Shown: in pieces, positions 2,422 through 54,394 of the stretch | Numbering within the stretch: the first letter of the stretch is position 1 | Layout: each line of letters opens with the position of its first letter | Origin: a virus | Direction: 5' to 3' (one strand) | IMG/VR virus record: IMGVR_UViG_3300009826_001457 | Span: 10,654-74,653 of that record | Length of the DNA stretch: 64,000 nucleotides | Made by a program: the position numbers and the translations under genes | Notes under the pieces: model-generated | Told to the model about the DNA's origin: nothing | Seen by the model: only the letters and a program-made list of their open reading frames with translations | Database searches by the model: none

Positions 2422-4554
2422 TTAACGCATTCCGATACGGGTCATGTTATTCCGTTGCTCGGTAGCAACAATTGTAGGTATTTCACCCTTCAGCATAGAA
2501 ACCGCATTACCAATCATCTTCTTCACTTCCGGCAATGCTTCCTGCGTTACGCCAGCATTAAAATTAAAGTTAGCTTCAACTAAGCTCCTGCCTTGCGTTC
2601 CAACACTCGGAACATTTGCACTTCTGATACTGTCTGTTATGTTGCGCATACCGTCAGAGCCTAAGCCAAACACAAGCTCACTAAAGGCCCTGGTCTGCTC
2701 GGCAGTAAGAACTTGCTCGTTAGGGTCCAGGAATCTTAGACCCGCGCCTCTATTCAAGCCGCCTGAAGCAAAGCGAGGTATGTTAATCGTAGTCGTTACA
2801 CCGGGCGTATTAGCACCGATAAGATTAACCTGCGCTTGTGTCTGTACTACAGCAGCCTGGACATTTGCCGCAACCATAGTAATTTGCTGCAACTGGACAT
2901 TCATTTGGCTAATGGCCTGCCCAATTTGGTTTAGCACGGTGCCAACATTGTCAACCCATCGCTGCATATTTGAAGACAGCATATTAAACAAATTACTGCT
3001 TGACCGCATAACTTCATCATGGAAGCGCTTTACGCTCAATAGTTTTTTCTGCTGTGTTTCACTGAAACGCCTATAGTCTTCATCGTACATTTCAGACAAG
3101 GTTTCCAGTTTCTCCACTTGTACGTTTCTTATCTCCTCAATTATTTCAAATAATTCCTGTGTCATAGCTTCGTCTAAATGCCAAGAGCCTTGGGCATCCT
3201 GGAACCATTCCTGGGCCAGTGCCAAGCGCTCTTTTTCCGCTGCGATTCTTGCTCTATCTGCTTCGGTAGTAGCTTCGGCATAGGCTATGGAAAGACGCTC
3301 CCATTCTTCGATGGCATTGATTTGCTCCTGAGATAAACTCATTAAGTTATTGCCCAGAACCGTAGCAGCACCTTCCATCGGTAAAGCAAAAATAGATTCA
3401 ATTGCTTCCTGCATAGTTGTTTGCCCATCACCTAGCATACGCAAAGCATCGGCAATTGCGTCCCTGGCCGCTGTCGGTATCATCCCGAACTGCTGAGTAA
3501 TAAACGCAAACAAGCCCTCGTCTGACATATGCGAAAACCGTTCTATATTATCCTGTATAGACAGCCAAAGATCTGTATGCTGTTGCCTTACCCCGGCTAA
3601 TCTGCCGTTTAGTTCATCAAATGCGTGTTCATCCCATCCAGGAGCCACAGCTATGATTAAGTTGTTTCTATCTGCCTCAAGCAGATTAGCCGCGCCGTTA
3701 ATGTTTCTTTCTACGTAGGTTCTAAGTTCTTCCGGTGTGAGTATACGTCCGTTCTCTAATATGGGGGTAACTTTTATTGTGATTTCATTTCCGCCTCTAT
3801 CGGATACTTGGAAGTTTTGTGCGAAGGTTGCAGTGGCAGCCCCCTCGATTTCCCATCCGCGCCTGGCCATTTGCTCTGCCGTTACATGCCCGCGGTTATG
3901 TAAGTTAAAGTTGCCATTAATAAGACTGTTAAATTGGTCTGCCAGTATTCGTATTTGATTTTGAACATGCTCAATATCAATATCCATAATAGCTGCGTTT
4001 ATCCTATTGATTAAGTCATTAAGGCTTGTTACATTAAACATTTCCGCAAGGATATCTCTTACCGTTATGCCTTGGCCTATAACTCTTTCAAAAAGGTTTT
4101 GATCTGTTGCGATAAGTACGTTGTTGGCTAGGTTTTGTAAAGCTTCGCCTGCAATTAATATTTGCTGTGTTAGTCTTGTTTTTACATACTCACCAAGGAT
4201 GCCCATGCCTTCGCCAAACTCTTTTTCAAAGGCCCATAGGTCAGCGATTAGCTGTTCATTTACCCCACGCTCCAGGATAGGCCTTGCTTCTGCATAAAGT
4301 TGGGCATTACTTAAACGCTGTACGAACAAAGCCTGTACTGCGTCCCACTCGGCATCAAGCTGCGCGCGCCTTGCATCAAGGGCCTGCATTTCAAGGTCAA
4401 GCTGCGCCCTCAATGCATCCCTTCTATCTCCTAGCTCATTGCGAATATCTTCTCTTCGGTCTCTCTCCGCAGCATCAGCGGCACCTTGCCGCCTATCTGC
4501 ATATTGGCGTTGAAGGTCACGCAAACGAGAAATAGCTTCTGCGTCACCGGTTTC
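2422..4554 (-). CDS. Tape measure protein, exon 2 (C-terminal 710 aa)
   Basis: The frame stays open upstream of the track's TTG to ETGDAEAISRLRDLQRQ. It ends in a typical TMP C-terminus (IPRFASGG...LDPNEQVLTAEQT) and continues the coiled-coil style of exon 1. Confidence 0.85.
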   Translation of the reverse strand, partial: ETGDAEAISRLRDLQRQYADRRQGAADAAERDRREDIRNELGDRRDALRAQLDLEMQALDARRAQLDAEWDAVQALFVQRLSNAQLYAEARPILERGVNEQLIADLWAFEKEFGEGMGILGEYVKTRLTQQILIAGEALQNLANNVLIATDQNLFERVIGQGITVRDILAEMFNVTSLNDLINRINAAIMDIDIEHVQNQIRILADQFNSLINGNFNLHNRGHVTAEQMARRGWEIEGAATATFAQNFQVSDRGGNEITIKVTPILENGRILTPEELRTYVERNINGAANLLEADRNNLIIAVAPGWDEHAFDELNGRLAGVRQQHTDLWLSIQDNIERFSHMSDEGLFAFITQQFGMIPTAARDAIADALRMLGDGQTTMQEAIESIFALPMEGAATVLGNNLMSLSQEQINAIEEWERLSIAYAEATTEADRARIAAEKERLALAQEWFQDAQGSWHLDEAMTQELFEIIEEIRNVQVEKLETLSEMYDEDYRRFSETQQKKLLSVKRFHDEVMRSSSNLFNMLSSNMQRWVDNVGTVLNQIGQAISQMNVQLQQITMVAANVQAAVVQTQAQVNLIGANTPGVTTTINIPRFASGGLNRGAGLRFLDPNEQVLTAEQTRAFSELVFGLGSDGMRNITDSIRSANVPSVGTQGRSLVEANFNFNAGVTQEALPEVKKMIGNAVSMLKGEIPTIVATEQRNNMTRIGMR

Positions 4555-4716
4555 CTTTTATACCCTCGGTTTCCCGATATTTATTAGGGGAATTGACTAT
4601 ATCATGACTATTTTTAATAGCCTTAATGCGCTTCCAGTGGCAGCTCATCTTCCACTGTACTCCCTTGCGGGATAGTCGATACACTTTACTTGATTTGTGT
4701 TTGCTTCTATACAATG

Positions 4717-4745
4717 AAAAAGACTGCTCTAGTTAGGAACAGTCT
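4717..4745 (-). terminator. Terminator-like hairpin after hicB, inside the intron
   Basis: AGACTGTTC-ctaacta-GAGCAGTCT followed by TTTT. Confidence 0.65.
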
Positions 4746-4782
4746 CGTTATGCTAAAATAAGGTAATAGTATGGCTGCTTGA

Positions 4783-5121
4783 CTACACAGCTATATAACT
4801 TTTCATGGCTTCCTCAAGTGCTTCGTTCACACGTTTATTGTTCTTTGCGGAATATAAAACAAAGTCTTTGTGCAGCTCAGGTGAAATAGTCACATTATCC
4901 AGTTTACCACAGTAAGGTATCATCGGCTCGCGATTTTCTGCTTCACAACTAGATAAATAATCATCAACTGCTTCGATAAAACACGCTGTAAGCTCAATGA
5001 GGCTTTCTCCATCATATGAAATTAAGCCAGTTATACCAATAACTTTGCCATGAAGGATATTGTCTTCAGCAGAATACTCAACTGTGCCATGATAGCCTTT
5101 GTGTTCTAATGTATTATTCAA
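4783..5121 (-). CDS. hicB: HicB-family antitoxin (intron-encoded)
   Basis: MNNTLEHKGYHGTVEYSAEDNILHGKVIGITGLISYDGES...FIEAVDDYL...EP..PYCGK, with an RHH-like C-terminus. ATGA overlap with the upstream hicA. Confidence 0.9.
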   Translation of the reverse strand: MNNTLEHKGYHGTVEYSAEDNILHGKVIGITGLISYDGESLIELTACFIEAVDDYLSSCEAENREPMIPYCGKLDNVTISPELHKDFVLYSAKNNKRVNEALEEAMKSYIAV

Positions 5122-5369
5122 AGAACACCCTCCAATCTTAAAACATCTAAAATATGATTGACTTGGTATGCTTTCAAAATATTTCGTGGATGGGGCTTGT
5201 GTATGGCGACATCATATGACTCTCCCCAAAATATAACTTTCGAGCCACTTGTTTTACCCTTGTTTGATTTTTGAAAACCCAGTGAGAGTAGCAGCGTCTC
5301 CGCTTCATCAAAGGTAAAGTCTTTAGGTTTAGATTTTAATCTTTCAATCAATTTCAACTTTTTACTCAT
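5118..5369 (-). CDS. hicA: HicA-family mRNA interferase toxin (intron-encoded)
   Basis: MSKKLKLIERLKSKPKDFTFDEAETLLLSLGF...GKTSGSKVIF...IHKPHPRNILKAYQV. Start at ATG 5369 after GGGAGAGG. Confidence 0.9.
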   Translation of the reverse strand: MSKKLKLIERLKSKPKDFTFDEAETLLLSLGFQKSNKGKTSGSKVIFWGESYDVAIHKPHPRNILKAYQVNHILDVLRLEGVL

Positions 5370-5385
5370 GTGGCCTCTCCCAATC

Positions 5386-5408
5386 AAAAAGGTAGCCTTT
5401 TAGCTACC
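5386..5408 (-). terminator. Terminator/attenuator-like hairpin in the hicA leader
   Basis: GGTAGC-taaaag-GCTACC followed by TTTTT, about 16 nt upstream of the hicA start. Confidence 0.6.
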
Positions 5409-5414
5409 CCCTTC

Positions 5415-5487
5415 TGTTAAATCTCCCATTTATCAGGCAGGGACTCTCCACTTGTTAAATCTCCCATTTATCAGGCAGGGACTCTCC
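5415..5487. repeat. Two perfect 35-bp direct repeats, 38-bp period
   Basis: TGTTAAATCTCCCATTTATCAGGCAGGGACTCTCC at 5415-5449 and 5453-5487. Confidence 0.95.
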
Positions 5488-5499
5488 TCTATCGTATGT

Positions 5500-5528
5500 A
5501 GTATATATTGGCACTTAAGGGTCGTCAA
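5500..5528 (-). promoter_or_regulatory. Sigma-A type promoter for the repeats and hicAB, inside the intron
   Basis: TTGACG-17 nt-TATACT on the minus strand. Confidence 0.75.
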
Positions 5529-5829
5529 TAGCTTCTAGCATAGAACTTTATCAATACATAATAATCAAATACGCATTAGTCTAACATGCTTTTTACACAA
5601 TCAAGTCTTAGCACGGTGTTTTCAGCTACGCATTCTCATGCGCCTTAGAATTTCTTAAAGAGCTACTTCGTCCATGGTCAGCTTCTACTGAAAATAGAAA
5701 CAGGCTTGTTATCTCCTTGTAAGACTTCAACAAGCGGTCTTATTCAACTCTTACCGTTAGCACCGCAGATGAGCCCTGCGGTACACCCCTGAGCTTCAGG
5801 GTTCACATTAAATGGCCTAAACTTTATTA

Positions 5830-8800
5830 AGCCGCTATTCTTAGCTCATTCATCCTCCGACGCAGTTCATCAAGGTCATTAATTTCATCCTGCTGCCTTC
5901 TACGCCGGTCTTCTTCCGCCCATTGCCGTTGTAATGCCCTTAACAAATCATCTATGTAATCGATCTGCATCTGGAAGTGAGCGCGTATCCTATCTCGTTC
6001 CGCATCCAGATGTGCCACTCTTGCGTCATGGGCTTCCCGTTCCAAATCACGTTCACGCTGATGCCTTGCTCTCAACATTGCTATAACTTGATTTTGCAGA
6101 TTACGGACATCGGATATTTGCGATTCAGCTAAACTCCTATGAGCTTCGACAAGTTGATAAATACCCCTGACATTAGCCTGGTATTGGTCTTGTAGGTCTT
6201 GCATTAAGTCTCGCCATGCTTGAGTAGACTGTGTTGTTGCGTCCGTCTGCATACGAAGCCTTACCATCTGGTCTATCAAAGAGCGGGACAGGGAAAGCCT
6301 ATTTTCAAGTTGGTCGTTAAGTAACCGTTCGTGCGTAGCGTGGTCGGTATCGGAGGTAATAGAGATTCTAAACTCAAGATGTGAGAAATGTCTGTCAAAC
6401 GCATCACGCTCTTGTCTAAACTTGTCATTAAACACATCAACTATACGAGCCGCATAAGCACGATATTGCTGCTCCAATTGCTGCATCCTATAACTATCTT
6501 CAGCGGCCCCCATATAAGCAAATCTTCTTTGCTCTTCTAGGATTACTTGTTGAAAATCCCTAAAGATTTCAAGCTGGGCATCAAAATCATTGTTCTCTAC
6601 AGCAATTGATAATCTAAACTCAAGTCTTTCCCGAGTGGCATCAAAAATACTATTCTGAAGGTCTTGCCATTGGTTTCGCAACTCCATAATCTCATTACTG
6701 GAATCATCAAAACCAAGTCGGCGCATTCTGTTGGCCTGCTCATGCAAGTCGTTCTGAAGCTGCCTATATAAATCAATCTGGTCATCAAAGTTCATGAACT
6801 CTCTGGCGCGGGTAAGCTGTAACTGTACACCTTGCTCCCAGTGTCGCCTTACTCCGTTAACCACTTCCAGCTCAAGCCTACGCCATTCATCAAGATATTG
6901 CGCTCTGTTGGCAAAGAATCTTTGGTTAAGACCATCAAGTCTATTAAGGAATGTCTCTTCGGAAATAAGCTGCATATCATGAAGCCAGCGGAGTTCGGCT
7001 ATTTGACGGTTAGCCTCATCCAGCCAAGGATCCCCGCCGCTACTACTGCCGCGGTTAGCCTGCTGTGTAGATGAACGTGAGGGGGCGCTACCGCGTTGAA
7101 AATGATTGGATGCACCACCGGTAGTTGCCGGGGCCATGGAGTTAATGATATCAATATTACGCTGAGTACGGCGAAACGCTTCTTCGATATCCCGCATAGC
7201 CTGTTCGGACAAATGACTTAAATCGCCATACTCACCGCCTATCATCATTTGATTGGCCACGTTTACGGCTGCGGCTAATACACCAAAGTTCTCGGCAGTT
7301 GTTAATGCCTGCTGGCCGATATTAATTAAGCGGGTACGTGCATGGTCAGTCGAGGCTGAAAGTTCGTCTGTTTTCCTTCGCGTATCTTCTTGGATGATTG
7401 CCCGGATTTCTTCGGCAAGTGCGGCCTGTTGGGATGCAATCATTTCTTCCCGCAATGCCTCGGTTTTTTTATCTATCGCAGCGATGTTTAATATAAGCCG
7501 GCCTTCGGAAAATTCAAGGAGATCCAAATACTCGTCTCCCGCTTCTAACAGCCGTTGGACCGTCCCAATCGTTAAGTTACCATGTTCGTTGAACTCATCA
7601 ATGGCCCCGGTCAACAATGAGTATGCAGAAGCCAATTGGTTAGTAGCCTCTACGGCTTGCTCCATTATTTCATTTGCGGTTAAAACGCCATCGCGCAGCC
7701 TTACATACTGGTCATGTAAGTAGTGCATTATCTGTATCTGACCCTGGGTGCGCTCATTCCATGGCGGTAATGAATCAGAAAACTCACGAAATGCTTTCAA
7801 TGCCAACTCTGTTGCAACGGCATTGGCATTCCATGATTCGGTATTAAGCACAAGCTGTCCATTTGCAGTAGTAATATGGTCGGCGATATTTGGCATTGCT
7901 TCCGAAAGCCTAATGAATGTTTCCCAAGATATGTAGCCCTGCGAGTTCATTTCACTTAAAGCGGCTTGGCTTACCGATAAAGCGGTATCCATCCTATTAA
8001 GGGTTTCGATATAATTAAATGTTTCACCCTTTACCGTTAACAGTGTGGCTTCTTTTAACTGAAGCTGTTGGTCAAGCCTTTCTATTTCACCTTGGGTACT
8101 TTCCAACTGCGTTTCCCATCTTTGAATAGCGGCGGTATAGTCATCTAACATTTGCTGCCTAACGGTTGTATCCATACCGGCTGATAGATGGTATATAGGG
8201 TCAATCGTAGGGCGCTGCGATTGCTGTAACTCCAACAGCTCCTGGAGTTCGTTTCTTGCGTTTCTTACTCGGTCAAAATTAGATTGTTGTTGGACCAGAA
8301 TAAAGTCTCTGTAGGCATCGGTATTAAGCCTGATTTGATTACCGACAACATATAAATAATCCAAGTAGTTTTCGCCAAGTTCGTCCATCAATGACGAGAC
8401 TGTACCTGACGATAACCCACCTGTGGTCGCCATTTCATTTTCCATTGAACGTAGAGAAGCCATCCTACTTGATATGTTTGAAATAGCAGTAGAAAAATCC
8501 TCGGCTGAAATTGTGGTCCCTTCAAATGACCTTCTTAACATTATCATCCGGGCATTTAAGTAATCCCAATCAACCGAGTCATCGGCATGGATGTTTAACG
8601 CAATATCACGGGCAAGTAGCAACTCATTAATATTAAGTTCATTAATAAGCGCATGTTCACTGGCTATTAAAACGCGCCGTATTTCATCCTTCATTCCTTC
8701 AATGCGCTCATCGGTAATATAGAACCCTAGTCTTAGCGCAATTACTTCGTTATCCATATTGCTGTCAATGGACTGTCGTATCCAATCAGGCAGGGAGTTA

Positions 8801-11800
8801 ATAAGTCCAAGAATCGTATTGCGGTAATTTTGTGCCGATTGCTGGGCATGGCTTGTGTCAAACAAGTGGTCAATCGCATCAATTAATTGTGGGTTATTAG
8901 CCAGCCCATCAAAAAAATCAGTAAGGTCATCTCCGCTGATTGATGAATTTTCAAATACAGTCTTAAAAAAATCTATTTGTCTACGAGATAAAGATTCCAC
9001 GTTTATTGAAGCAGCCATTGCCAATTCAACAAACTCACCTGATGATGCTCTTATCGCCTGAGCAAGTGCCTCTAGTCTTCGCAGTTCACTTTCCACTTCG
9101 CCTAAAGCGGTTGTTGCTCTGTTAGAATTGGAATCGACTCGCTCCAGCTCACGAAATATTCTGGCAAGCTCATTTAGTGTTTCTATTTGTCCTTCGAGAT
9201 CCAAGCCTTCAAACAAATGGCTAATGCCGGCATATGCTACACCAATACTTTGGATTTCGGTAAACATATTTTCAATGCCCTGTCTTCCGGCTGCGAGAAA
9301 TGCGTTAAATACAGGTACGCTTGGTCCCATCCGCATATCTTGGAAAGTAACCTCTGTGTTCCTTGCCTCGCTTCTCGCCAACATCATTGCGGTTTCAGCG
9401 GCATCTCTAGCAATAACGGCCTGTCTGCGTTCAATTTCTCTTAACTGAGATAGCTGATACGCTAAACCACCATTAACCAAGTCAAGATTCCTGGCTTGCC
9501 CTCCAACCAAGTCTGTAATCTGTTCTTGAATATTCCGGGCTTCAGTGCGTGCAGACTCATCAAAGGTCATAGCGGTTCTCAGCTCTCTATATCTTTCGAT
9601 TAACTGACCAATGGTATGGTAATGCTCTCGTTCCTCTCGTGCTCGTTCCCGGGTAAGTTGTGCGTGTTCCCGGGCTCGTTCTTCTGCGGCACGCTGGGCG
9701 TTAGTAAAGGCCATTAAACCGGCAACGGCAATAGCAATCCATGTAATCGGATTTTTTATCAATGCAGCAGCCATTGTTTTCGCGGCGATACCCACGGCTT
9801 TTAAACTGACTGCTTTGGTTTTGAGCGAAGCAATAAAACCGGCATTGGCAGTTATCCCGGCCTTTGTAGCGGCGTTGCGGGTAATTTCCGCCGTAGCCGA
9901 TTCTAACTTGGCTCCGGTTACTCCCATCAAAGCCAGCCGTTTCTTAATCTGAGCCTGTATATATGCTAAGTCTGTGGCCTTGCCTGCTTTTTTGGCTTTG
10001 TTCACAGCCATTTGAGCGATTACATCTTTTTGCATAACCGCAATATGAGCCGCCTGCGCACCGCTTAGGCTCTTGGTAGCCGCGGTCAAGCTCTCAACCG
10101 TTAATTTGCCGCTTGTTTGCAGGCTACTGACCTGTATTAACGCTGCTCCATATGTACTTAGGTTGGCAGGTAATGATGCAATGGCCGTACCCCAGTTCCT
10201 AAATGAGTCTATTATGCCGGAGGCTACCTTCGTAGCGGCTAGTTGCCTAACCAATGAAATTACCGCGCCCATCACCGGAGGGAATAAGATAAGCTGTCCC
10301 ACTAACCCATTCCATGTTCCTAAAAATCTTGCTACTGCTGTGCCGGCACTGTAAAACCATCCGACCCAACGGCTGCTAACCATACTGCTTACAGTGGCTT
10401 CAAATGCTGTTTGAAACGCGGCCATTCTACCTTCTAATGATTGTTGCCATACAATATTTTCTCTCATTGCTGAGCCGTATGAATACAAGGCTGTTGTGGC
10501 TGCGCCAGCGGCACTGGACATACCTTCCATAAGAGCCGCCATAACCTGACCCTGGCGTACACCGGCAACCAAACGGGTTACTTCGGCTTGCTGTACGTCT
10601 GTTAATGTACCCCAGATAGCAGATAAATCACTTAATATTTCAAATGTGCTTTTAAAGTCCGTGGCAGTTGCCATAATATCTACTCGGCCATCGGTGATTT
10701 CAAGTAATTGTTGATGCAACCTAGTAACCGATTCAGCAGCTCCATCTGCGTACTCACCCATATCCTGTAACTCGCCTGCGGAGTTACGCAAGCGCATCGA
10801 CAATGTACGTAAAGCAGTACCTACGATTTCAGGGTTTTGTATAACCTCGTTCGCAGCTACAATCATACCGATTGACTCTTCAAATGTATTGTTGGCGGCA
10901 GATAACGCGGCTGATGAACGGAACAGGGCTTCACCGATACCTCTTGATGAAATGGCAAAGTTGTTACCGACTTCGTTAAAGGCATCAACGATATGCATAG
11001 CGTTTTGTGCTTCAATATTAAAGGCTTTCATTGTAGAGATTATGGACTGTACCGCATCTTCCATCGGAAGACGTTCAGTACCTACATTACCTACGGTAAA
11101 ATATATGGCTGCTGCATCACCCAGGGCCGTCGCATCGGCTATGCTATATCCAAGTCTTGCGAAGTCGGCTGTAGCATTTATAATCTGGTTAACACTTACG
11201 TTTAATCTCTGAGCCCTAGCGTAAGCGTCTGTTAAGAAATTGGTGTATGTCCTTGCTGTTTCGTCTGTTACCCTGCGTAGGGCTGTCATAGCCCTGTCTA
11301 TTTCTAATATGTATCTTAAAGCACCGCGAAATGTATTAACTAGCCGACCAAACCCAAGCATTGAAACCAAATAAGCGCTTAGTTTTTTACCGGTAGCCAT
11401 AATGGTATCGCCAAAGGACATCTTCGCCCGTCCTGCACCTTGGACTTCGGTTGTAAAGGAGCGTACCCTTTGCGATAATGCTTGGAACTCTTTATTTAGG
11501 GCTGCGTAATGGTTCGTGTTCCCCGCTGCCTCTGCTGTTTGTAAAGCCTCCCGTACCCTATTTACCTCTTCTCTCAAGGTTTGCCAGGTTGCTGCCAGAT
11601 TAGGGTCAGCCTTAAAGGCAGACCAGTTTACACCCATCTTATCCAAGCGGCCCTGTAGCTGAGTTGTCTGCTCGTATAATCTAGTAAAACCTCTGATGTC
11701 GCCTTCTTCTGACCGTAGGGTTCTTAGGGTCTGTTTTGCCAGTTGCAGCTTATCGTTAAACTCACCCGCAAATCTGGCTTGGTCTTCTAAGCCGTTATTA

Positions 11801-14800
11801 TCCCTAAGAGCTTCAAGCGCAGTTACAGCGTCATTAATATTTGCCCGGACCCGGTTCAAAGCATCTTCCGACGCATCTGTATTAAGCCCGAAGTTTAACC
11901 CGGCAAAGGTTCTTTGTAATTCATCAACCGCAAGCTGCTTCCTTTGAATGTCAGCGTCACTAAGCGGCGTTACCGTGGTTCCCACTCTGCCGGAGGCATC
12001 GTTATTGGCCCTGGTTCTTGCAATAGTAATTCTGGCCAGTTCCTGTTCGGCAAATTGTAGGCGCTCATACGCTCCAATCTTATTTTGTAAAACCTGTTCT
12101 TGAGCTTGCAATTCAGATAACCTTGCTCTATTGCTTGGGTCCGTTCTGTTGGCCAACCTTTGTGTTTGGCCTAGTAGTCTTAACGTAGCAATATAATCAG
12201 TGACCGTTTTTGCGTGTGATACTTTTTCGTTATTAAGACCTTTAAGCTGGCTCTCAGCTTGGTTAATGGCCATTACCAAAGAGTTAAACGCCGTTATTGT
12301 AGCGTCCGGTGTCATGGTATTCTTAGCTGATTTAAACTCGCCTAGCTGTGATGTAGCACTGTCAATGGCGGATTCTAAATCAGCGTATCTTTGTGCCAGT
12401 TCGTCAAGTTCTCTGATGCCGGCTCGGTCTAAATCCTGTAAGCCTGTCCTCAGCCCGCTAATACGTGCATCATAGCCGCCGCCTTCGATTTGCCGTTGGG
12501 CAGCGGAAGCGGGGTCAAGGCGGTTAAGGCCCTGGAGGTCGGCTTTCATACCACGGATAATTTCTTGCTGTACCTTTAGCCCGGAGTTAAACTTCGCCAG
12601 AGATGTAGGGTCGTTAATTTCACCAACAACCCTACCTAGTTCTTGAAACTGCTCTTGCAATTTCCCTGTTGTATCAAAGGTATCAAGAAGGCTTCTGGAT
12701 TTATTCTGTAGCGTTGTTATTTGTTCCATGGCAAGCCGCTGATGGGCCTCGGCATCAAACATACCGCTAGGGTCGTGTTTGTAAGCCATTTGCGTTTGTA
12801 GGTGTGCGAAAACCCTCTCACCTTCAGACTTTACAAGCCCAAATGTTTCTTTTATTGTGCGTCCAATATTATCTTGATATGTTATAACTGCTTTTGATAC
12901 TTCATCCGCATTGGAAGTTATGTTAATGGCAACGGGTTGGCCTTCTATTTCACGAATGGCTGCGCTGAAAATGTTTTCAAGCTGCTCTTTAATGTTATTA
13001 GCATCGCCGGCACCAAAATCTAAGCCGCTTATATCTACACCAAGACCAGAAACCTGCGTATCAGCTACAGCTCTTTTGGCATCGCTTAGCGATTCAAATG
13101 CCTCTCCTGTTGCACTGGCCGCCGTTGCCTCACGGTCTAAACGCGCAGCCACATCAGAAGATATACTCGCCTTAATGCGCTCCGCATCTATAGCGCCCTG
13201 TATCGCCTCTGCATGGCTGCGCCATGCATCAGACGACTCTCTTACAACCGCGTTCTCAGTTTTTATGTCCTGGGCGACACCATGGTCAGGAGTTGAATCA
13301 AATGCTTCTTTTGTTACAGGTATGGCTATAGGTGCATCGTCGATTTTCCCCTGAAGCTCTTGCAGTCTATGTAATATGTTTTGCTTCCATTGGTCTAAAG
13401 ATGCTAGGTTATTTGCTTCTATATCCCCAAGGCTAATAGGGGTATCCCCTAACTGACCTTTTAGCTGTATTAAATCCGCAACGATATTTTGTATCTGCTG
13501 CCAATGTGTAACCTCATCCCCATCCGAGTCAAATGAAGCAGTTACTTTCAATTGTTCAAAGGTTGCCAGTTTATCACGCAGTTGCTCTACGGAAGCTCTT
13601 ACGGTATCTTCATCCATTATCGCCGCAACCTCAACATTGGCAACGGATGCAACCCTCTGCAACGCAGACAACTCTGTTTTCGTCGTTGCCAGTTGTTCTC
13701 TAAGGCTTGCAAGGGCGGTAGTATCAACATCACTTAGCCCTAAATCACCGGCAGCCTCACGGACGGTTTCATACATCCCAATTAATTTCTGCAACGAATC
13801 TTGGATGGCTGTAACGGAACCTTGCTTCTGCTCAAGATTTTCTTGTGATATAGATTTGTTGACTTCAATAAGCCTGTTTAACTCTGTAAATGATTCACGG
13901 ATACCATCGTTATTGACCTGTAATCCCATGGCATCGTTTATTATGGCCTTTGCGCCTGTTAATGACTCATCATTAATAATAAGCGCTGTTTCTAATGTAA
14001 GCTGCTCTAAATCACCAACATCAGGTGGAACAACCTTAGTTGAAATATGTATGTCCTTAGTATCAGGAAGACCATCCCCAAGCTGTTGAAGCGCTTGGTT
14101 CGCTTCACCGCCAGCAGCCTGAACGAACTGAATATACCCTGTGATGATAGCTTGATTGCGTTGTATAAAATCTTCAAGCTCTTGTTCGTTAAGCTCTGTA
14201 GATAAGTCCGTTCCGCCTAAATTAAAAAGAGACTCTGTTTGTCTCTCGTTAATGGCCGATTCAACTGGGTTCTGCAATGCCTGCTGTGCGTTTTCATATG
14301 CCTGTTTTAATTCATTTAAGTATGCTATATAGTCTTGTATGGGTTTGGAATCGTAACGCTGTGGTTTTTCAGCTATAAAATTTTCATTGATTCTTTGTAA
14401 GCCAATAAGTGCATCATCAAATTCACGCTCAAGGGCCGCGGTAAATTTTCCAAGCCCCATCCTGCCCACGGCTTCATCTACGTTAAAGGTTTGCCCTATA
14501 AAACCTTGGGATGCTTGGGCTAATTCGGATTGCCTTCTCTGATTTTCTGATAGCAATCGTTGGTGCTCATCTTCCTTAGCGTCATTGATGGCTTTAATAT
14601 GAGCGGCATAGCGTTCGGGGTTGATACTCTCTAATGCTTGTTTAATAGCATTTTTATTGTTAGTGGACATGCCGGTAAACTCATGTAACATCCCAAGCGA
14701 GGCTTTATTATTCCAATGCATAACCTCGTCAAGATTAGTGAAATCACCTGATTGAAGCTGCGATAACCTTTCCAATGCCAATTTAAGACTATGTATCTCG

Positions 14801-17800
14801 CTACCTGCGTCACTGAGCCTACGGATAAAATTATTAACCATGGTTTGCGATGCTGAGTCCAATGCCGATAAAATGCCTTGTAATTGAATCAAATCATCAG
14901 GCAGACTGTCTGGAATGGTTGCCGTAGTTTCTAAGGTTACTTGAGTGAGGTCATCCGGGGTTGGGACTATGGGTACCGCTGCTTCCGTTGGGATGGTAAT
15001 AGGGTCGGCGGCATTTACTTTATTATGTACGGTACTAACAATGCTCGTAAGTTTTGAGGTATCCGCTTCTATGGTTACGGTTGTGCGATGAGCGTCCAAG
15101 TCTTTTAAATCAGACTGGAGGCTTTCAAGTTCTCTTTGTAACAAAAGCGGACGAGGCACTTCATTATCTTTTAAATGCCCAGTACCATGTAATCTCGTAA
15201 GAACAGCTTCGTACTGTTCGGCCAAAGCAATTAACTTGGTTTTGCTTTGTATTGACGCTTCAATACTTTCTCTATAATCCTCCGGCAGTTTAACATTTCG
15301 CAATTCTTGAATTTGCTGCCCAATGTGCCTACTCATTTGTGATGCAACAGGGTCTTCGATTTTTAAGCTTGCGCGGAGCTTATCGGCAGATGCAATGTTT
15401 CTTTCTAACTCCTGTTCAAGACTACTTAAAAATGCTTTAACCGGTTTTCCTAATTGCCCCTGGCCACCGCCTAAGGCATCATGATATTGCTCTGCTAATA
15501 CCCGTGCCCTTTCCAATAACTGCTTCTGTTCTTCTAGCCTCCGTAAAACGTTTTTGCCGATGGTTTCATCGTCAGCCTGCGCCCATCGGCCGCCGGTACT
15601 CTTACGAAGCAAGTTGTCATCTACAGCAGCTTGCCAAGCTCTAGTTCCTCTATTAGCATTTGGGTCCGGTATAACAAAATTTTTGTATGCTTCGGCAACC
15701 GCACGGAGGTCTTCCGCAATTTCCGTCGCCGCCTTGCGCTGAGAAGAGATGAAGCTGGCTGTGTTCTGGCTAGTCCTTGCCATTGTTTCTTTAATGAAGT
15801 CGATGGAAGCGGCAACATCGCCGGAGCCTTGGCCTAATGTAAAGATTGATTCTTGTAAATTAGTTATTGCTGTGTCAAATTCTTCAATAGCTCCCCGTTT
15901 ACGCTCCATATATACACTAAACCGCTCTGTGCCTAACGATTCCGGTATGTCTGCGCTTTGGAGCATTTCGTTCATCATGCGCTTTGCGTTGGTTAATTTT
16001 TGTACAACATCATCGTACCTCGCCAACTGCTCCGCATCCATACTATCAAGAGTTGTGGGCAATCTTGATTCCAAATTAGCTATGGTAGATGGGAGGCCCT
16101 CCATAATAAATATATCGTCTTTTACTGCCTGGACCTGTTGGTGCAGCCTGTACCATTCATCTATCTTTTCGCTTATCTGTCCAAAAGTAATCTCAATAGG
16201 TTGGGTATTGATAGCGGTTTGGATATCATCAATTGTTGCGACCACAGTTTGTTGGGCTTGCTCAAAATTCGCAACGGCTGTTAATTCAATAGAAGGGATG
16301 TCAATAGTACCAAAAGCATGGACGGCATTTTCTCCGGCCAGCTTTAGTACGTTGTTATACTGCATAACCGTAGTAGCAAGTCTTTCTATATGCTCTTGGG
16401 TTATCGCAACCTCATTAACCGTAACAGCCGAAGGGTCGTAATCATGCCTACCCTGAATGGCACCAAACCATCTTTCCTCTAATTCTTGAATAGATTGAGC
16501 ATAGGCAGTCATTGTCTTGACTTGTTCCCTGCGCTGTTCTTCAAACCGCTGCGGAGCATCTCCAAGTTTTGTAGGCGCGGCCCCCACGGGAATCCGCTCT
16601 GTGATAACATCGGTAAACTCCATAGCATACTGCCGCATACCGGTTGCCATGGCGTTTAACTCTTCCTGCGCGGCTTGGGCCTCATGCCGCAAAGATTCAA
16701 TATAGCGTATGTACTCAGAAAACTCTCTTGGAATAATACCTATTTCATGTAAGGCTTCACTGCTTACGCCATGAAATTCGCCTGCCTGTACCCTGTTGGC
16801 CTGTTCAATAACACGCTCTAACTCTCTTCGGGTTTCTTTTTCTTCACGTAGATTCTTCGTAAGCTTTTCAGAGAAAGCGCTTTGTGTTTTATATTGTTCA
16901 ACGATAGTGTTAAAGTCTGCATCGTTAAGCCCGGGGTGCATGTCTCGGAGCTCTGTCCTAGCGAAACGCTCCGCGCCCATTGCTTCGAGCTTTTGCTTTG
17001 CTTCTATGCCCCTGCGTACAATTTCATCTACGGCGGCATCTAAGTTAATATCAACTGGCAGATTTACGGGATTAGCGCTTGCCTTCAGTTGAGCGGCATT
17101 CATTATTTCCCTGACTGTGTTCTGTGTATTAACATCATCCACAGAAGCGGTTAAAGGCATTGTGAAGCTATGCTGCAATTCCTGTAACCTAATTCTTATA
17201 AATTCCAATGCACGGTTAACATTATCTTCATTCAATACGAGGACTTCATTGTTGGTTAAGCCGATATTGCTAAGGCCATCATACTGTGCAAGCAATTGTA
17301 CAAGGCTTTGGAGTGCTGCTTCTTTACCTTTTAATAATTCTATATCCTGCGCTATTGCTATATCATTTTGTTGAGTTGAGGCAACGGCCGGAGTTTGTAT
17401 GGATTGATGTATAACATTAAAGGCATCCGCCAAACTGCGTACCTGCTGCACCACATCGTCGGTTTTTATTTCTATCCTTGCGGCTAAAGTAGTGTCATTG
17501 ATAATATCCCGTATTACGTTTAACGCTTCATGTGTTGCGGAAATATCAGCCTGAGGGTGAACCACGACTCCCAAGTTTGCCAACACTGCTTGATGATGCT
17601 CAATTTGATTTGTGACCCTAAGCATCTGGGTTTCAAGCTGCCCGACAACACTGGCCAGGGATTGAAGCAGTTCTTGGTTTTCATTAACCGCATCGGCGGA
17701 TACGCCGTTTAATTGCTGTGAAGCATTAACGGCCTGCTGGATAAGATTTAAGCGTTTGGTGTATGCGGCAATAATATCTTGTGAAAATCGGGCTTCATCA

Positions 17801-18663
17801 AGGTTATTGGCATCATGTCCAAGCTCTCTAGCCAACTGCACGCCAAGGCTATCCATATCTCTCGAAGATATAGAAGGGATAACAACTTCCGTAATCTGCT
17901 TTAACTGGGTCTTTATATCGGCAATAGTCGCTTCGACTTGGCGCAGGGAGTCTTCCGCAATATTAACACCGACATCTATATTTACAGGGGAACCCGCGGT
18001 CAGAGTGCTGATGTTATTGAACTTCTGCTGAAGCATACTCGCTATCTGCGCTTCATCGAAATTTATCAATGCTTCCATTGGCGGCAACTCTAGCGTAGCC
18101 TTATGTAATCTCTTGAAATCATTTAGGGTATCATTGACTATTTCTTCATTTGCAACACGAACATCATTAAGCCTTTTTAATTGGTCGCCTAAGAAGTTTT
18201 CAAGACCGTCACTGCTTCCAAGCAATGATTTTTGCTGTCTTGTAAAGGTATCACCGAAATTCTCTTGAATCTTCGTTAATCGTTCATACTCCACGCCCAT
18301 TTCTGTGAGCATTTGAACATGTTGTCTAAAATGGCTAACAGACCTTGCATCGCCTATTTCCTCAATATCTCCGACCCTATCCGAAAGTTCGGAAATGCGT
18401 ATTAAGCTATCTCGTATTTCTTTTTCAACGTTCTTAATACTGCCGGGATCAAGTCGTACACCAATTTGAACATCATCTATAGACTTCGTAATGCCGGCGA
18501 TTATATGCTGTGCTTGCTTTTTAACATCACGGCCATCAAGTTCAAGCCTTAGTTTGCCCGTAGATTCTTTGTTGATTATGTTTGATAAATTTCTTACGTC
18601 GCCTTTTAACTGCTCCATATCAATATCAATGGTAGGTGTAACTCTTACTTCATAGTCAGACAT
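5830..18663 (-). CDS. Tape measure protein, exon 1 (4278 aa)
   Basis: Very long coiled-coil ORF with a TP901-type TMP core (AMTALRRVTDET...ATADFARLGYS...IVDAFNEVGNNFAISSRGIGEAL...VGTALRTLSMRL). It ends at ...LRIAA followed by a TAA that is the first three bases of the intron. Confidence 0.92.
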
Positions 18664-51889: not shown

Positions 51890-54394
51890 TTACTGTCCTT
51901 CCTGCTTTATAAGCTGATACCTTTTTCCCAGGTATTCAAAAATACCATGTGCTTCATCTCTGGTTGGTAAGAACACTGGTACCTGTTTAATATTATTAAC
52001 AACATCATCACCAGCCATATTCCACAAAAAGCCTTTCGTTCGGCTAGGATATTTTTCATAGCATAGCATGACGATAATATTGGCAAGCATTGCTCCATTA
52101 GGGCATACAGCGCGACATTTGTTTCTGTACTTCTCGTAAAATATATCCCAATTGATTTCAAATGCGTGCGCTCCGCCAAGTTCATCTCTAATGCTTCGTT
52201 CATCCTTTTTAAGCTGGGCAAATTCCTTATTATATTCTAGGTAGAGGTTTTCAATAATGGCGGATGTTGCTTCATCTATGCTAACGCCTTCATCAATCAT
52301 TATCGTATAATCAAAGTTGCTATCGCGTTTTCCCCACTTTAGTTGAGTATGCCATTTCTCAATATCCCAACATAGGCGGTTCATATTGCTTTTCGACTTC
52401 AGAAACTTCTTTAATGATTTGTAATAGTCGCCGGCGTACTTCATAAAGTAAGGGAGCGGCTTCCCAAATTTAGCTATGTTTCTTGGGATGTTAAAAATAA
52501 CCCCAGTCTTGGCACTGTCTATCGCCTTGCCGTTGATTACACTTAGCAAGTCAATGTATTTATCATATGTAAGCTTCTGTTTCATAAGCTGCGGCATCTT
52601 ATTATGGTATGTAGTAGCGCAGTTACTTGTCTCACCGATTAATGAATGCATACCCAGCATAATAACCTTGAGTTTATTTTCGGGAGTATCTTCTTCAGCC
52701 AGGGCCGCTATCTTATCTTCTATATCAATTACAATCGCTGCGTCTCTGTCTACACCGCTTTTCATAATTTCATTTTCAACAACAAGAACTAAGTCTCCGT
52801 CTGTATCAGCACCATTCAATCTCTGGGCCACAAGGCTCTTACAGTTCACCATGCAGACATTAGTTAGATGTGATAAATATTTATTTATATCCGACGTTGC
52901 TACTGCATTTAAGATTACATGCTCTGACCTGCATATATGGGGATTGCGCTCTATTAGATATTCCCCGTCATATGTACCACGAATGCTTTGCGTCCAAAAC
53001 TGATCCGAACTAAGGCAGCCTGTCAATGGCAGACCACCTACATGTTCCATTAACATAATTAAATCAGGCACTAGGAACCGCGATGTAGCTTTAATGTATA
53101 TTTTTCCGCATTTCATTTCATTTATATATTTTTTTAATGTGCGTAGCAGGTAATTACGTACTCCTATCTCGTTAAGCATTGTCGGATTCTTAGCTACAGC
53201 CCTTGCATAAGGAGTAACAGGGTTATTGCGTTCAAGGGTAAGCCCTAAAAAAGCCGCGGTGCTATTCCAATCATTAGCGATGATTTTCTCAATCCAGTTA
53301 ATAGAATAATCAGCCAACTTTCTAAAATGGTGATAGTCTAAAATTAAATCTTGCAGTATTTGATAATTACCTCGTCTATAAATTTCTTCTTCTTCCAAGC
53401 TATAATTCCATTTCACTACGCCTATGCAGTGATTATATTTTTCAAAGGCATCCCAATATCTCTCCCAATCCCTGCCGTCACCGTAGTGATTAAAATATTT
53501 ATAGCCTTTGTACATGCTTTCATTCATAATTATCATTGGAGTGCTTCCTGGCCTTACATCGTGCCAGTTACCCCATATATCTTTAATGAACTCAACACCG
53601 CGCTCTTCATAAAAGCTGATATAATCTACCTCATGGGTCATGCCCTTTATAAAAGGAGCGCGAATTAGTATAGAGGTACATCTTGTGTCCCCCATATCTC
53701 CAAGTCTTTGTAGATGGTTCATTACTTCATTAGTAATCGAAGGATGGTGTATACCGCATCCATCAAAGAGATTGATGTTAATATCCCTAATCCCTTCTGT
53801 AATGTCCTTCTGCTTCCAGGTACGCATTTCGCCAGTTGTCTTATCTTTAAATTCGGTTTCTGTATCAATAACATATTTAATCGTCTGCGCTGTTATTGTA
53901 CCTTCTCTGTCAGGTAAAATAATAATCTTAGGTTTCCAGTCTTCTAAGCAATGGCATGAACTTAACATCAACCCGCAATAGGCATACCATTTTGAAAGCA
54001 CAGTTGTTCCAATATCTATGCCCATGGTTACTGCTTCTTTAACTGCCGGTGCCAACCTTTCGTCTATAAAGCTAAGGATGGATTGACGTACCATAGACGC
54101 TGAGCGCTCACTGATAACATAACGTCTGCCATTAAAAATGAATCCGTTTATGATTAGCTCTGCTAACCCTTCTTCATTGCTTTTCCCGCCATTACAATTT
54201 ACAAAGATAATCCAGGGAATATATATACCCGTGCTGTCACCTGTAATATTTCTTATCTGTCGGAATATCATGTTATCCTGCTGAAGCACCGTGAACATAT
54301 TATTTTCTTCACGTTCAACTATGACATTGCTATCTTGGCCCAATATGTATCTAAGCGGAATCTTATTTACCTTATATAGTTTAGGCGCGAACAT
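51890..54394 (-). CDS. yonO: Single-subunit DNA-dependent RNA polymerase (YonO/RdRP-like)
   Basis: 834 aa; IRAPFIKG, IERNPH, and catalytic RLNGADTDGD (DxDGD); SPbeta-like synteny. Confidence 0.88.
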   Translation of the reverse strand: MFAPKLYKVNKIPLRYILGQDSNVIVEREENNMFTVLQQDNMIFRQIRNITGDSTGIYIPWIIFVNCNGGKSNEEGLAELIINGFIFNGRRYVISERSASMVRQSILSFIDERLAPAVKEAVTMGIDIGTTVLSKWYAYCGLMLSSCHCLEDWKPKIIILPDREGTITAQTIKYVIDTETEFKDKTTGEMRTWKQKDITEGIRDININLFDGCGIHHPSITNEVMNHLQRLGDMGDTRCTSILIRAPFIKGMTHEVDYISFYEERGVEFIKDIWGNWHDVRPGSTPMIIMNESMYKGYKYFNHYGDGRDWERYWDAFEKYNHCIGVVKWNYSLEEEEIYRRGNYQILQDLILDYHHFRKLADYSINWIEKIIANDWNSTAAFLGLTLERNNPVTPYARAVAKNPTMLNEIGVRNYLLRTLKKYINEMKCGKIYIKATSRFLVPDLIMLMEHVGGLPLTGCLSSDQFWTQSIRGTYDGEYLIERNPHICRSEHVILNAVATSDINKYLSHLTNVCMVNCKSLVAQRLNGADTDGDLVLVVENEIMKSGVDRDAAIVIDIEDKIAALAEEDTPENKLKVIMLGMHSLIGETSNCATTYHNKMPQLMKQKLTYDKYIDLLSVINGKAIDSAKTGVIFNIPRNIAKFGKPLPYFMKYAGDYYKSLKKFLKSKSNMNRLCWDIEKWHTQLKWGKRDSNFDYTIMIDEGVSIDEATSAIIENLYLEYNKEFAQLKKDERSIRDELGGAHAFEINWDIFYEKYRNKCRAVCPNGAMLANIIVMLCYEKYPSRTKGFLWNMAGDDVVNNIKQVPVFLPTRDEAHGIFEYLGKRYQLIKQEGQ

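Follow-up and report, generated by a model that had tools for sequence, protein, structure and literature searches.

We describe a putative group I intron that splits the tape measure gene of a provirus from termite-gut metagenomes and that carries, in the loop of its P6 helix, a composite toxin-antitoxin (TA) cassette. The intron lies in a stretch of 64,000 nt (positions 10,654 to 74,653 of IMG/VR record IMGVR_UViG_3300009826_001457; hereafter the window) within a 98.8-kb provirus record, and all coordinates given here are those of the window. The cassette joins a leader homologous to those of type III ToxIN systems to the type II gene pair hicAB, and we consider it probable that hicAB replaced toxN behind that leader and that the resulting cassette serves the prophage.

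The exons and their junction were located by comparison with uninterrupted homologs. Exon 2 was used as a HMMER query on 1.84 billion representative proteins; long proteins containing internal matches were returned, and two of these, P0248 (1807 aa, Pfam PhageMin_Tail, SPbeta-like neighbours) and P0250 (1955 aa), were aligned with the last 280 aa of exon 1. Both are intronless and contiguous through the junction (..NELxIAA/xxGDAEAIS): exon 1 ends at residue 1495 of P0248 (..NELQIAA) and exon 2 starts at residue 1496 (DSGDAEAIS), while in P0250 exon 1 ends at residue 1638 and residue 2 of exon 2 aligns to residue 1640. At the DNA level, an intronless allele is represented by L131, a PhageMin_Tail tape measure gene; searches of IMG/VR with exon 2 and with a junction alignment yielded no related loci. 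Since the intronless homologs are contiguous at the junction, removing 5829..4555 rebuilds one tape measure protein of ~4989 aa, and the intron sits in a conserved motif of the tape measure gene, as homing introns do. At 0.15 nm per residue, a spliced protein of ~4989 aa implies a tail of ~0.7 micrometre. Another exon 2 homolog (57% identity), on the ENA contig of P0243, has two adjacent same-strand open reading frames (ORFs) of 134 and 109 aa ~650 nt upstream, and this ORF pair may be another cargo variant at the same intron site.

Judged by its sequence and potential secondary structure, 5829..4555 on the minus strand is a self-splicing-type group I intron of an IA-like family common in Firmicutes phages, and we infer that it splices. 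The initial annotation had proposed that the flanks of the cargo fold as one intron, and this held: every core helix was found in the window (Table 1), in the order P7-P7.1-P7.2-P3'-P8-P7' seen in the RF00028 alignment of the related intron L035, and the intronless homologs confirmed the junction. P7 is formed by GACUAU/AUAGUC, with flanks that fit the R and S consensus. U5830 at the 5' splice site forms a U.G wobble pair in P1, as read from the sequence, and the same P1 design recurs in Bacillus phage G, L065, Clostridium phage CS266P1 and a sister locus described below; a terminator scan picked up P1 as a 7-bp hairpin.

Relatives of this ribozyme are widespread in phages. By blastn, introns from phages of Bacillus, Listeria, Staphylococcus and Enterococcus, residing in genes for DNA polymerase and ribonucleotide reductase, were 73-90% identical to the region ~4690..4553. 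Both ribozyme halves also had matches in two endonuclease-bearing introns, that of phage G dnaE (homing endonuclease gp330) and that of CS266P1 (an I-HmuI-like endonuclease). More than 114 IMG/VR loci contained a 39-nt pattern taken from the 3' core; a 43-nt lineage-specific pattern from the same core had no IMG/VR matches. Two cargo-free members with the 3' core pattern, L035 and L056, aligned end to end with RF00028 at 37.7-38.2 bits (E 1e-7 to 2e-6), scores that fall below the gathering score of 50 for this family. The helix following P4 covaries, pairing as UCAGU/ACUGA in phage G and CS266P1, AGAGU/GCUCU in the window, GAAGU/GCUUC in L097 and UCAGC/GCUGA in L065, and P2, P2.1 and P7.1 likewise differ by compensating changes among relatives. 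A supposed weakening of P4 in the window (5 bp vs. 8 in relatives) was dropped, the extra pairs being those of the next helix, which is kept by compensatory changes.

Within this fold, the cargo is enclosed by the P6 stem, in which ACTTGATT-GTGT (5606..5595) pairs with ACAC-A-AATCAAGT (4700..4688) just as the initial annotation had it, and the loop it had put at about 900 nt measured 894 nt. An 8-bp inverted repeat in 1.3 kb is not significant alone, and the weight of this pairing comes from its position and conservation. On one side it is flanked by P4' (ACCGU 5617..5613, then GCUAAG) and on the other by J6/7-P7 (AAAGUGUAUCGACUAU, 4687..4672). A stem of different sequence in the equivalent position closes the cargo loop in six relatives, with loops of 487-903 nt including that of the window, and the sister locus retains the P6 stem, while in L092 and L017 P6 is a small empty hairpin.

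The promoter, repeats, hicA, hicB and terminator that had been read from the loop were all recovered at their places on the minus strand, so that the cassette stands in sense orientation relative to the tape measure gene. No further ORF of at least 60 aa was found in the loop on either strand, none in the ORF list was endonuclease- or transposase-like, and HicA and HicB were the only Pfam matches in the intron, in agreement with the earlier view that the loop holds no nuclease or transposase gene. Since no endonuclease of any family is present, no homing mechanism is encoded. For comparison, the cargo of each related intron was represented by its longest ORF with an end immediately 5' of the 3' core. 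In the resulting catalogue of 77 ORFs, Pfam identified HNH_3 (34), NUMOD4 (21), GIY-YIG (12), LAGLIDADG (1-2) and a few host exons, and neither Pfam nor tblastn with HicA and HicB detected either protein among the cargo of these 77 introns. Full-text literature searches (TA, HicA, ToxIN, abortive infection, cargo) likewise returned no described group I intron with TA cargo, as the initial annotation had supposed.

Cargo also varies elsewhere in related introns. L017 and L118, which are the same intron in two IMG/VR loci, differ in P8, short in the former and occupied by a ~300-aa HNH-type endonuclease ORF in the latter, a presence/absence polymorphism in a loop other than P6. In L092, an anaerobic ribonucleotide reductase gene region (683-2470) holds three group I introns, two of which belong to the intron family of the window (one with the empty P6), while the third is an RF00028 match at 683-1016.

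Table 1. Coordinates of the tape measure exons, ribozyme elements, cassette features and late polymerase gene in the window.
Feature	Position	Strand	Details
Tape measure exon 1	5830..18663	-	4278 codons; ends ..NELRIAA; last base U5830; ORF runs 18663..5827 including TAA
P1	5814..5833	-	exon GGCU + intron UAA (5833-5827) with internal guide UUAGGCC (5820-5814)
Group I intron	4555..5829	-	1275 nt; in-frame UAA stop at start; last base G4555 (omega G)
5' ribozyme half	5595..5813	-	alignment with eight relatives; compensatory changes vs. sister locus and phage G
P2	5801-5787	-	5' half
P2.1	5782-5762	-	5' half
P3 5' strand	5763-5759	-	GUGCU; 5' half
P4 5' strand	5756-5752	-	ACGGU; 5' half
P5 domain		-	includes hairpin 5643-5628; 5' half
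P4 3' strand	5617-5613	-	ACCGU; 5' half
P6 stem	5606-5595 with 4700-4688	-	8 + 4 bp, one bulged A
P6 loop cargo	4701..5594	-	894 nt enclosed
Promoter	5528..5500	-	TTGACG-17-TATACT; sigma-70/sigma-A type, 10/12 consensus matches
Two tandem 38-nt repeats	5415..5490	-	97% identical (37/38); 0 expected by chance
Hairpin GGUAGC/GCUACC + U5	5386..5408	-	between repeats and hicA; place of type III attenuating terminator
hicA	5118..5369	-	83 aa; Pfam HicA_toxin PF07927, 29.4 bits (cut-off 27), 8.6e-7
hicB	4783..5121	-	112 aa; Pfam HicB PF05534, 25.2 bits (cut-off 21); ribbon-helix-helix match
Intrinsic terminator-like hairpin + U-run	4717..4746	-	after hicB, just before P6 3' strand
3' ribozyme half	4555..4700	-	sequence identity to phage introns; helix order from RF00028 alignment of L035
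P6 3' strand	4700-4688	-	3' half
J6/7 + P7 5' strand	4687-4672	-	3' half
P7.1	4671-4662	-	GCAA loop; 3' half
P7.2	4657-4635	-	3' half
P3 3' strand	4632-4628	-	AGCGC; 3' half
P8	4622-4606	-	3' half
P7 3' strand	4603-4595	-	3' half
P9.0/P9	4590-4563	-	GAAA loop; 3' half
Tape measure exon 2	2422..4554	-	710 codons + stop; starts ETGDAEAIS
YonO-like single-chain RNA polymerase	51890..54394	-	834 aa; Pfam RdRP 2e-14; size and family of SPbeta YonO

The initial annotation regarded the cargo as a complete hicAB operon, and only part of this description stood: hicA and hicB are present, but the operon is not self-contained, its leader being homologous to that of type III ToxIN. Between the -35 element and the ribosome-binding site, the promoter, repeats and hairpin of the window run collinearly with those of toxIN loci, the promoter matching those of L125 and L127 in place. 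Pattern searches found the repeat family in L125 (IMG/VR), in L126 and L127 (JGI metagenomes) and in two Lachnospiraceae genomes (L129/L130), and a protein-context look-up added L133 (ENA). A stricter repeat pattern had found nothing in metagenome or genome contigs, and it was a looser one that found L126-L130; of these, L128 reaches into the cargo of the L127 locus only as far as its promoter and first repeats. In L125, L126, L127 and L133, a promoter precedes two or three repeats, after which come a terminator hairpin, a ribosome-binding site and an ORF, and the ORF behind the repeats is ToxN (PF13958, 9e-46 in L125 and 2e-48 in L127). The window repeats are 84-95% identical to the repeats preceding ToxN genes in L125, L126, L127, L133 and L129/L130, L125-L127 and L133 have equivalent hairpins where the window has that at 5386..5408, and the hicA start codon falls at the position of the toxN ATG in these homologous loci. 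PF13958/ToxN is absent from the 98.8-kb provirus record, and the array in the window is best read as an orphan ToxI-like array with no ToxIN system of its own.

In Logan contigs, the 38-nt unit was abundant in other termite-gut samples that do not contain the rest of the locus; word depths of this ToxI-like unit were 16-94 in runs X3 and X4, so that this toxIN family is abundant in those samples. The termite-gut contig L126, which also carries toxIN, has a match to the Rfam Fusobacteriales-1 RNA motif at 250-368 on the minus strand (54.4 bits, above gathering).

Behind the leader, hicA is preceded by a ribosome-binding site (GGGAGAGG), and the hicB start overlaps the hicA stop by 4 nt (TTGA), an overlap also seen in relatives; the two genes are read as a translationally coupled pair. 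Homologs, mostly from Clostridia, numbered 1330 for HicA and 216 for HicB. The window HicA retains 18/18 invariant residues of its subfamily, in which H57 and H60 are invariant across 20 aligned members. The predicted HicA-HicB interface scored 0.70, the best control reaching 0.01, with runs agreeing on at least 96% of contacts and a partner predicted local distance difference test (pLDDT) value of at least 82; in calibration, the interface mark was reached by 51/78 solved complexes and by 2/108 mismatched pairs. This prediction supports binding of HicA to HicB, and the pass may reflect likeness to the family, HicAB complexes having been solved. The closest hicAB homologs (74-79% identity) are chromosomal and lie beside a tRNA-Trp gene; their similarity to the window is confined to the two ORFs, and no intron motifs or upstream repeats were found with them. 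None of the IMG/VR relatives of HicB (39% identity) lies in an intron. Chromosomal hicAB directly follows a tRNA-Trp gene in L122 (1230-2060) and L123 (350-470). Behind hicB, L122 has the 3' half of the tRNA once more, an arrangement resembling that of a mini-islet inserted into the tRNA gene.

The history of the cassette is illuminated by a sister locus, composed of L128 and the reverse strand of L127, which overlap by 243 nt at 99% identity. Here exon 1 ends ..INELRIAA, and the 5' splice site, ribozyme 5' half and P6 5' strand follow as in the window; the cargo runs from a promoter through three ToxI repeats and a terminator to toxN (171 aa), behind which stands a second terminator; then come the P6 3' strand, the 3' half and the 3' splice site as in the window, and exon 2 (ETGDAEAIS..). 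The sister gene order is also present in one piece on an ENA contig from another sample, where it is known from gene order. While the exons of the window and the sister share 71-72% nucleotide identity (74-77% in protein), the ribozyme halves are 85% (5') and 91% (3') identical, with compensatory changes in P2.1 and P5c and a different hairpin as P8. A third relative, L132, is cut inside the intron and holds only the 3' intron end, with the 3' splice site as in the window. In the sister locus, the exon 2 frame stops after ~194 codons (..INLAIENI; L127 1-215), where that of the window continues, and an opposite-strand ORF follows; this stop could reflect a second insertion or intron, or else a truncated tape measure gene.

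Since all other loci of the repeat family have toxN, an ancestral toxIN intron in which hicAB later displaced toxN is the simplest history. Most likely, recombination replaced toxN by hicAB, with one breakpoint no more than ~10 nt from the start codon, and the intron loop of the window appears to be a swappable slot for TA modules.

The layout of the locus was checked in Logan unitigs, which cover 3900-4694, 4665-5444, 5458-5767 and 5738-6500, with depths between 9.4 and 13.8. Since X1 and X2 seem to be a single data set that was deposited twice, this unitig evidence comes from one sample. Long unitigs cross both splice sites, so that contiguity at 4555 and 5829, which the initial annotation had singled out as the place where an assembly chimera would reveal itself, was seen in them. 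The unitig that holds hicAB (4665-5444) includes the P6 3' strand, J6/7 and the start of P7, and the one that holds the promoter (5458-5767) includes the P6 5' strand and P4-P5; breaks fall only in conserved core sequence and the tandem repeat (4665-4694, 5444-5458 and 5738-5767). The sister locus is independent support for the layout of the window.

The host element is a large SPbeta-like temperate phage, and the window encodes a polymerase with the size and family of SPbeta YonO (Table 1). In SPbeta, the late genes form a single operon that is transcribed by YonO, an enzyme without the flap domain required for hairpin-dependent termination (PMC5467207). One exon ORF among the related intron loci also matched RdRP, and YonO-like polymerase genes may carry introns of the window's family too.

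These features suggest how the cassette could work in the two phases of phage life. In the lysogen, the RNA polymerase of the host would initiate at 5528..5500, giving abundant ToxI-like RNA; some transcription would continue past the 5408..5386 hairpin, leading to the translation of a little HicA and HicB, and would halt at 4746..4717, before the ribozyme 3' half. HicAB could then act as a prophage defence or addiction module, while the orphan ToxI RNA might neutralise ToxN-type abortive infection from relatives or hosts, like the pseudo-ToxI of phage PhiTE. During lytic growth, the YonO-like polymerase would read the whole late operon past both terminators, and the ribozyme would then excise the cassette and restore the tape measure frame. 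The initial annotation had conjectured, in addition, that the ribozyme lets the module hide in an essential gene, that the TA pair could stabilise an intron whose homing has been lost, and that toxin dose may be coupled to late transcription. A broader scheme, which we offer tentatively as a possibility, is that this intron lineage dropped its homing endonucleases and became a portable, insulated slot for defence and counter-defence genes, in which toxins are swapped by recombination behind a shared leader (toxN in one phage, hicAB in another), host polymerase expresses the module in lysogens and halts at the intron's own terminators, a terminator-blind phage polymerase and the ribozyme together hide the insert from tail assembly, and the retained ToxI RNA protects the phage from ToxN-type abortive infection mounted by its relatives.

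Several observations weigh against our main reading of the locus. HicA has GSK in place of the GSH that contains the canonical catalytic histidine, and K or R occupies this position in 20/20 aligned members of its subfamily; moreover, phmmer gave no meaningful match of HicA or HicB to solved HicA or HicB, and NCBIfam gave no match. The intron of an essential gene contains two terminator-like hairpins on the sense strand, and expression of the tape measure gene would be curtailed by both if the late polymerase did not pass over them. Given this threat and the missing flap domain of YonO, we propose that the late polymerase ignores both. With Rfam RF00028, neither the gathering cut-off nor a threshold of E 10 gave a match on the window, for which the 894-nt P6 insert is the likely reason. 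No run recorded as RNA contains the locus. CheckV estimated the completeness of the provirus at only 55%, and the phage may accordingly be defective. Finally, the direction of the swap from toxN to hicAB would follow from parsimony.

The missing Rfam match, the terminators and the incomplete provirus, together with the early end of the sister exon 2 frame, would all fit an intron that no longer splices or a prophage that is defective, with the tape measure gene permanently split and the cassette a neutral insertion. We find this quite improbable, however, in view of the long open frames of both exons (4278 and 710 codons), a ribozyme that is better conserved than the exons between the window and the sister locus, helices with compensatory changes, and the presence of all core elements and both splice-site signatures. 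Mis-assembly, in which hicAB would have been joined to the intron halves at repeats common to introns of the metagenome, could find an opening in the unitig breaks, which all fall in repeated or conserved sequence, and in the fact that X1 and X2 are not independent. Yet the cargo unitigs themselves contain ribozyme sequence, both splice sites are spanned, depths are similar throughout, and the layout recurs in the sister locus, which comes from other samples, leaving such a chimera scarcely credible.

The role of the leader RNA admits two further readings. The ToxI-like repeats could be a relic, the leader persisting only as promoter and attenuator of hicAB and its RNA having no antitoxin or decoy role, a view that accords with the missing ToxN gene and with the count of two repeats against three in the sister locus, L126 and L133, as expected of early decay or deletion. 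We nonetheless hold it to be unlikely: the two repeats are identical to each other at 37/38 positions, keep all positions that are invariant in the alignment with the L125 repeats, and reach 95% identity to one repeat of the sister locus, while L125 and L129/L130 have two repeats beside an intact toxN, and phages do use ToxI or pseudo-ToxI RNA to escape ToxIN (PMC3475682). Alternatively, the repeat RNA might also regulate or neutralise HicA, making a three-part system of type III and type II elements. The placement of hicA exactly at the toxN position behind repeats and terminator would suit such a hybrid, as would the general knowledge that HicA family proteins bind RNA, but the closest hicAB relatives have no such upstream repeats, HicB is present and predicted to cover HicA, and the repeat family occurs elsewhere always with ToxN, which makes the hybrid highly improbable. 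We therefore retain as the probable explanation an intron that carries a composite cassette to the benefit of its prophage.

Several phage group I introns hold a homing endonuclease gene in one of their peripheral loops: the T4 td intron has the I-TevI ORF in P6a, and SPO1-type DNA polymerase introns carry I-HmuI. To our knowledge, textbook group I intron cargo is limited to homing endonucleases, maturases and, in IStrons, transposases. The window intron resembles the endonuclease-bearing introns of phage G dnaE and CS266P1 in its ribozyme family, its P6 cargo, its in-frame stop after the 5' splice site and its placement within a conserved part of an essential phage gene, but it differs in having a TA cassette with its own host-type promoter and terminators, and in encoding no homing mechanism. 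With IStrons, which combine a group I intron and IS200/IS605, it shares a group I ribozyme with passenger genes other than endonucleases; in contrast to them, it has no transposase or TnpB gene, and its cargo is in P6 and not at the 3' end. Group I introns also split prophage tape measure genes in the Bacillus cereus group, where they were named TMP-IVS1-3 (Tourasse and Kolsto, 2008; PMC2504315). These belong to another host clade and occupy another insertion site, and the passages of that paper on tape measure genes, ORF-less introns and toxins mention no TA cargo.

Compared with TA systems, the leader is that of type III ToxIN/AbiQ in its promoter, tandem 38-nt repeats, terminator and toxin start, with repeats homologous to genuine ToxN-side ones, whereas the window has hicA-hicB for toxN behind an orphan array, and of the two intron loci only the sister has a complete toxIN. 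Phage PhiTE escapes ToxIN by means of phage-borne ToxI or pseudo-ToxI (Blower et al., 2012; PMC3475682) and offers a parallel of a phage genome with antitoxin-RNA repeats and no toxin; the window repeats differ in keeping a native promoter and terminator, in lying inside an intron and in being followed by another TA pair, and an escape function of theirs would be hypothetical. HicAB type II systems occur on prophages, e.g., Streptococcus phage Str03 (PMC6195288). The genes in the window conform to them in hicA-hicB order, gene overlap, Pfam domains and a ribbon-helix-helix DNA-binding end on HicB, and depart from them in their type III promoter and leader, their location in a ribozyme loop and the GS(K/R) in place of canonical GSH.

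The locus shows that whole TA or abortive-infection modules can reside in a peripheral loop of a phage ribozyme, and that members of a single intron lineage exchange such cargo, the sister phage having toxIN and the phage of the window ToxI together with hicAB. The cassette in the window is a natural chimera of a type III antitoxin leader and a type II TA pair, and it provides a testable case of how a "moron" might be carried cost-free within an essential late gene. A question of transcription arises as well, as two sense-strand terminators stand in a gene whose transcription is probably the task of a YonO-like polymerase. These results suggest that surveys of defence systems and annotation pipelines should include the interiors of introns.

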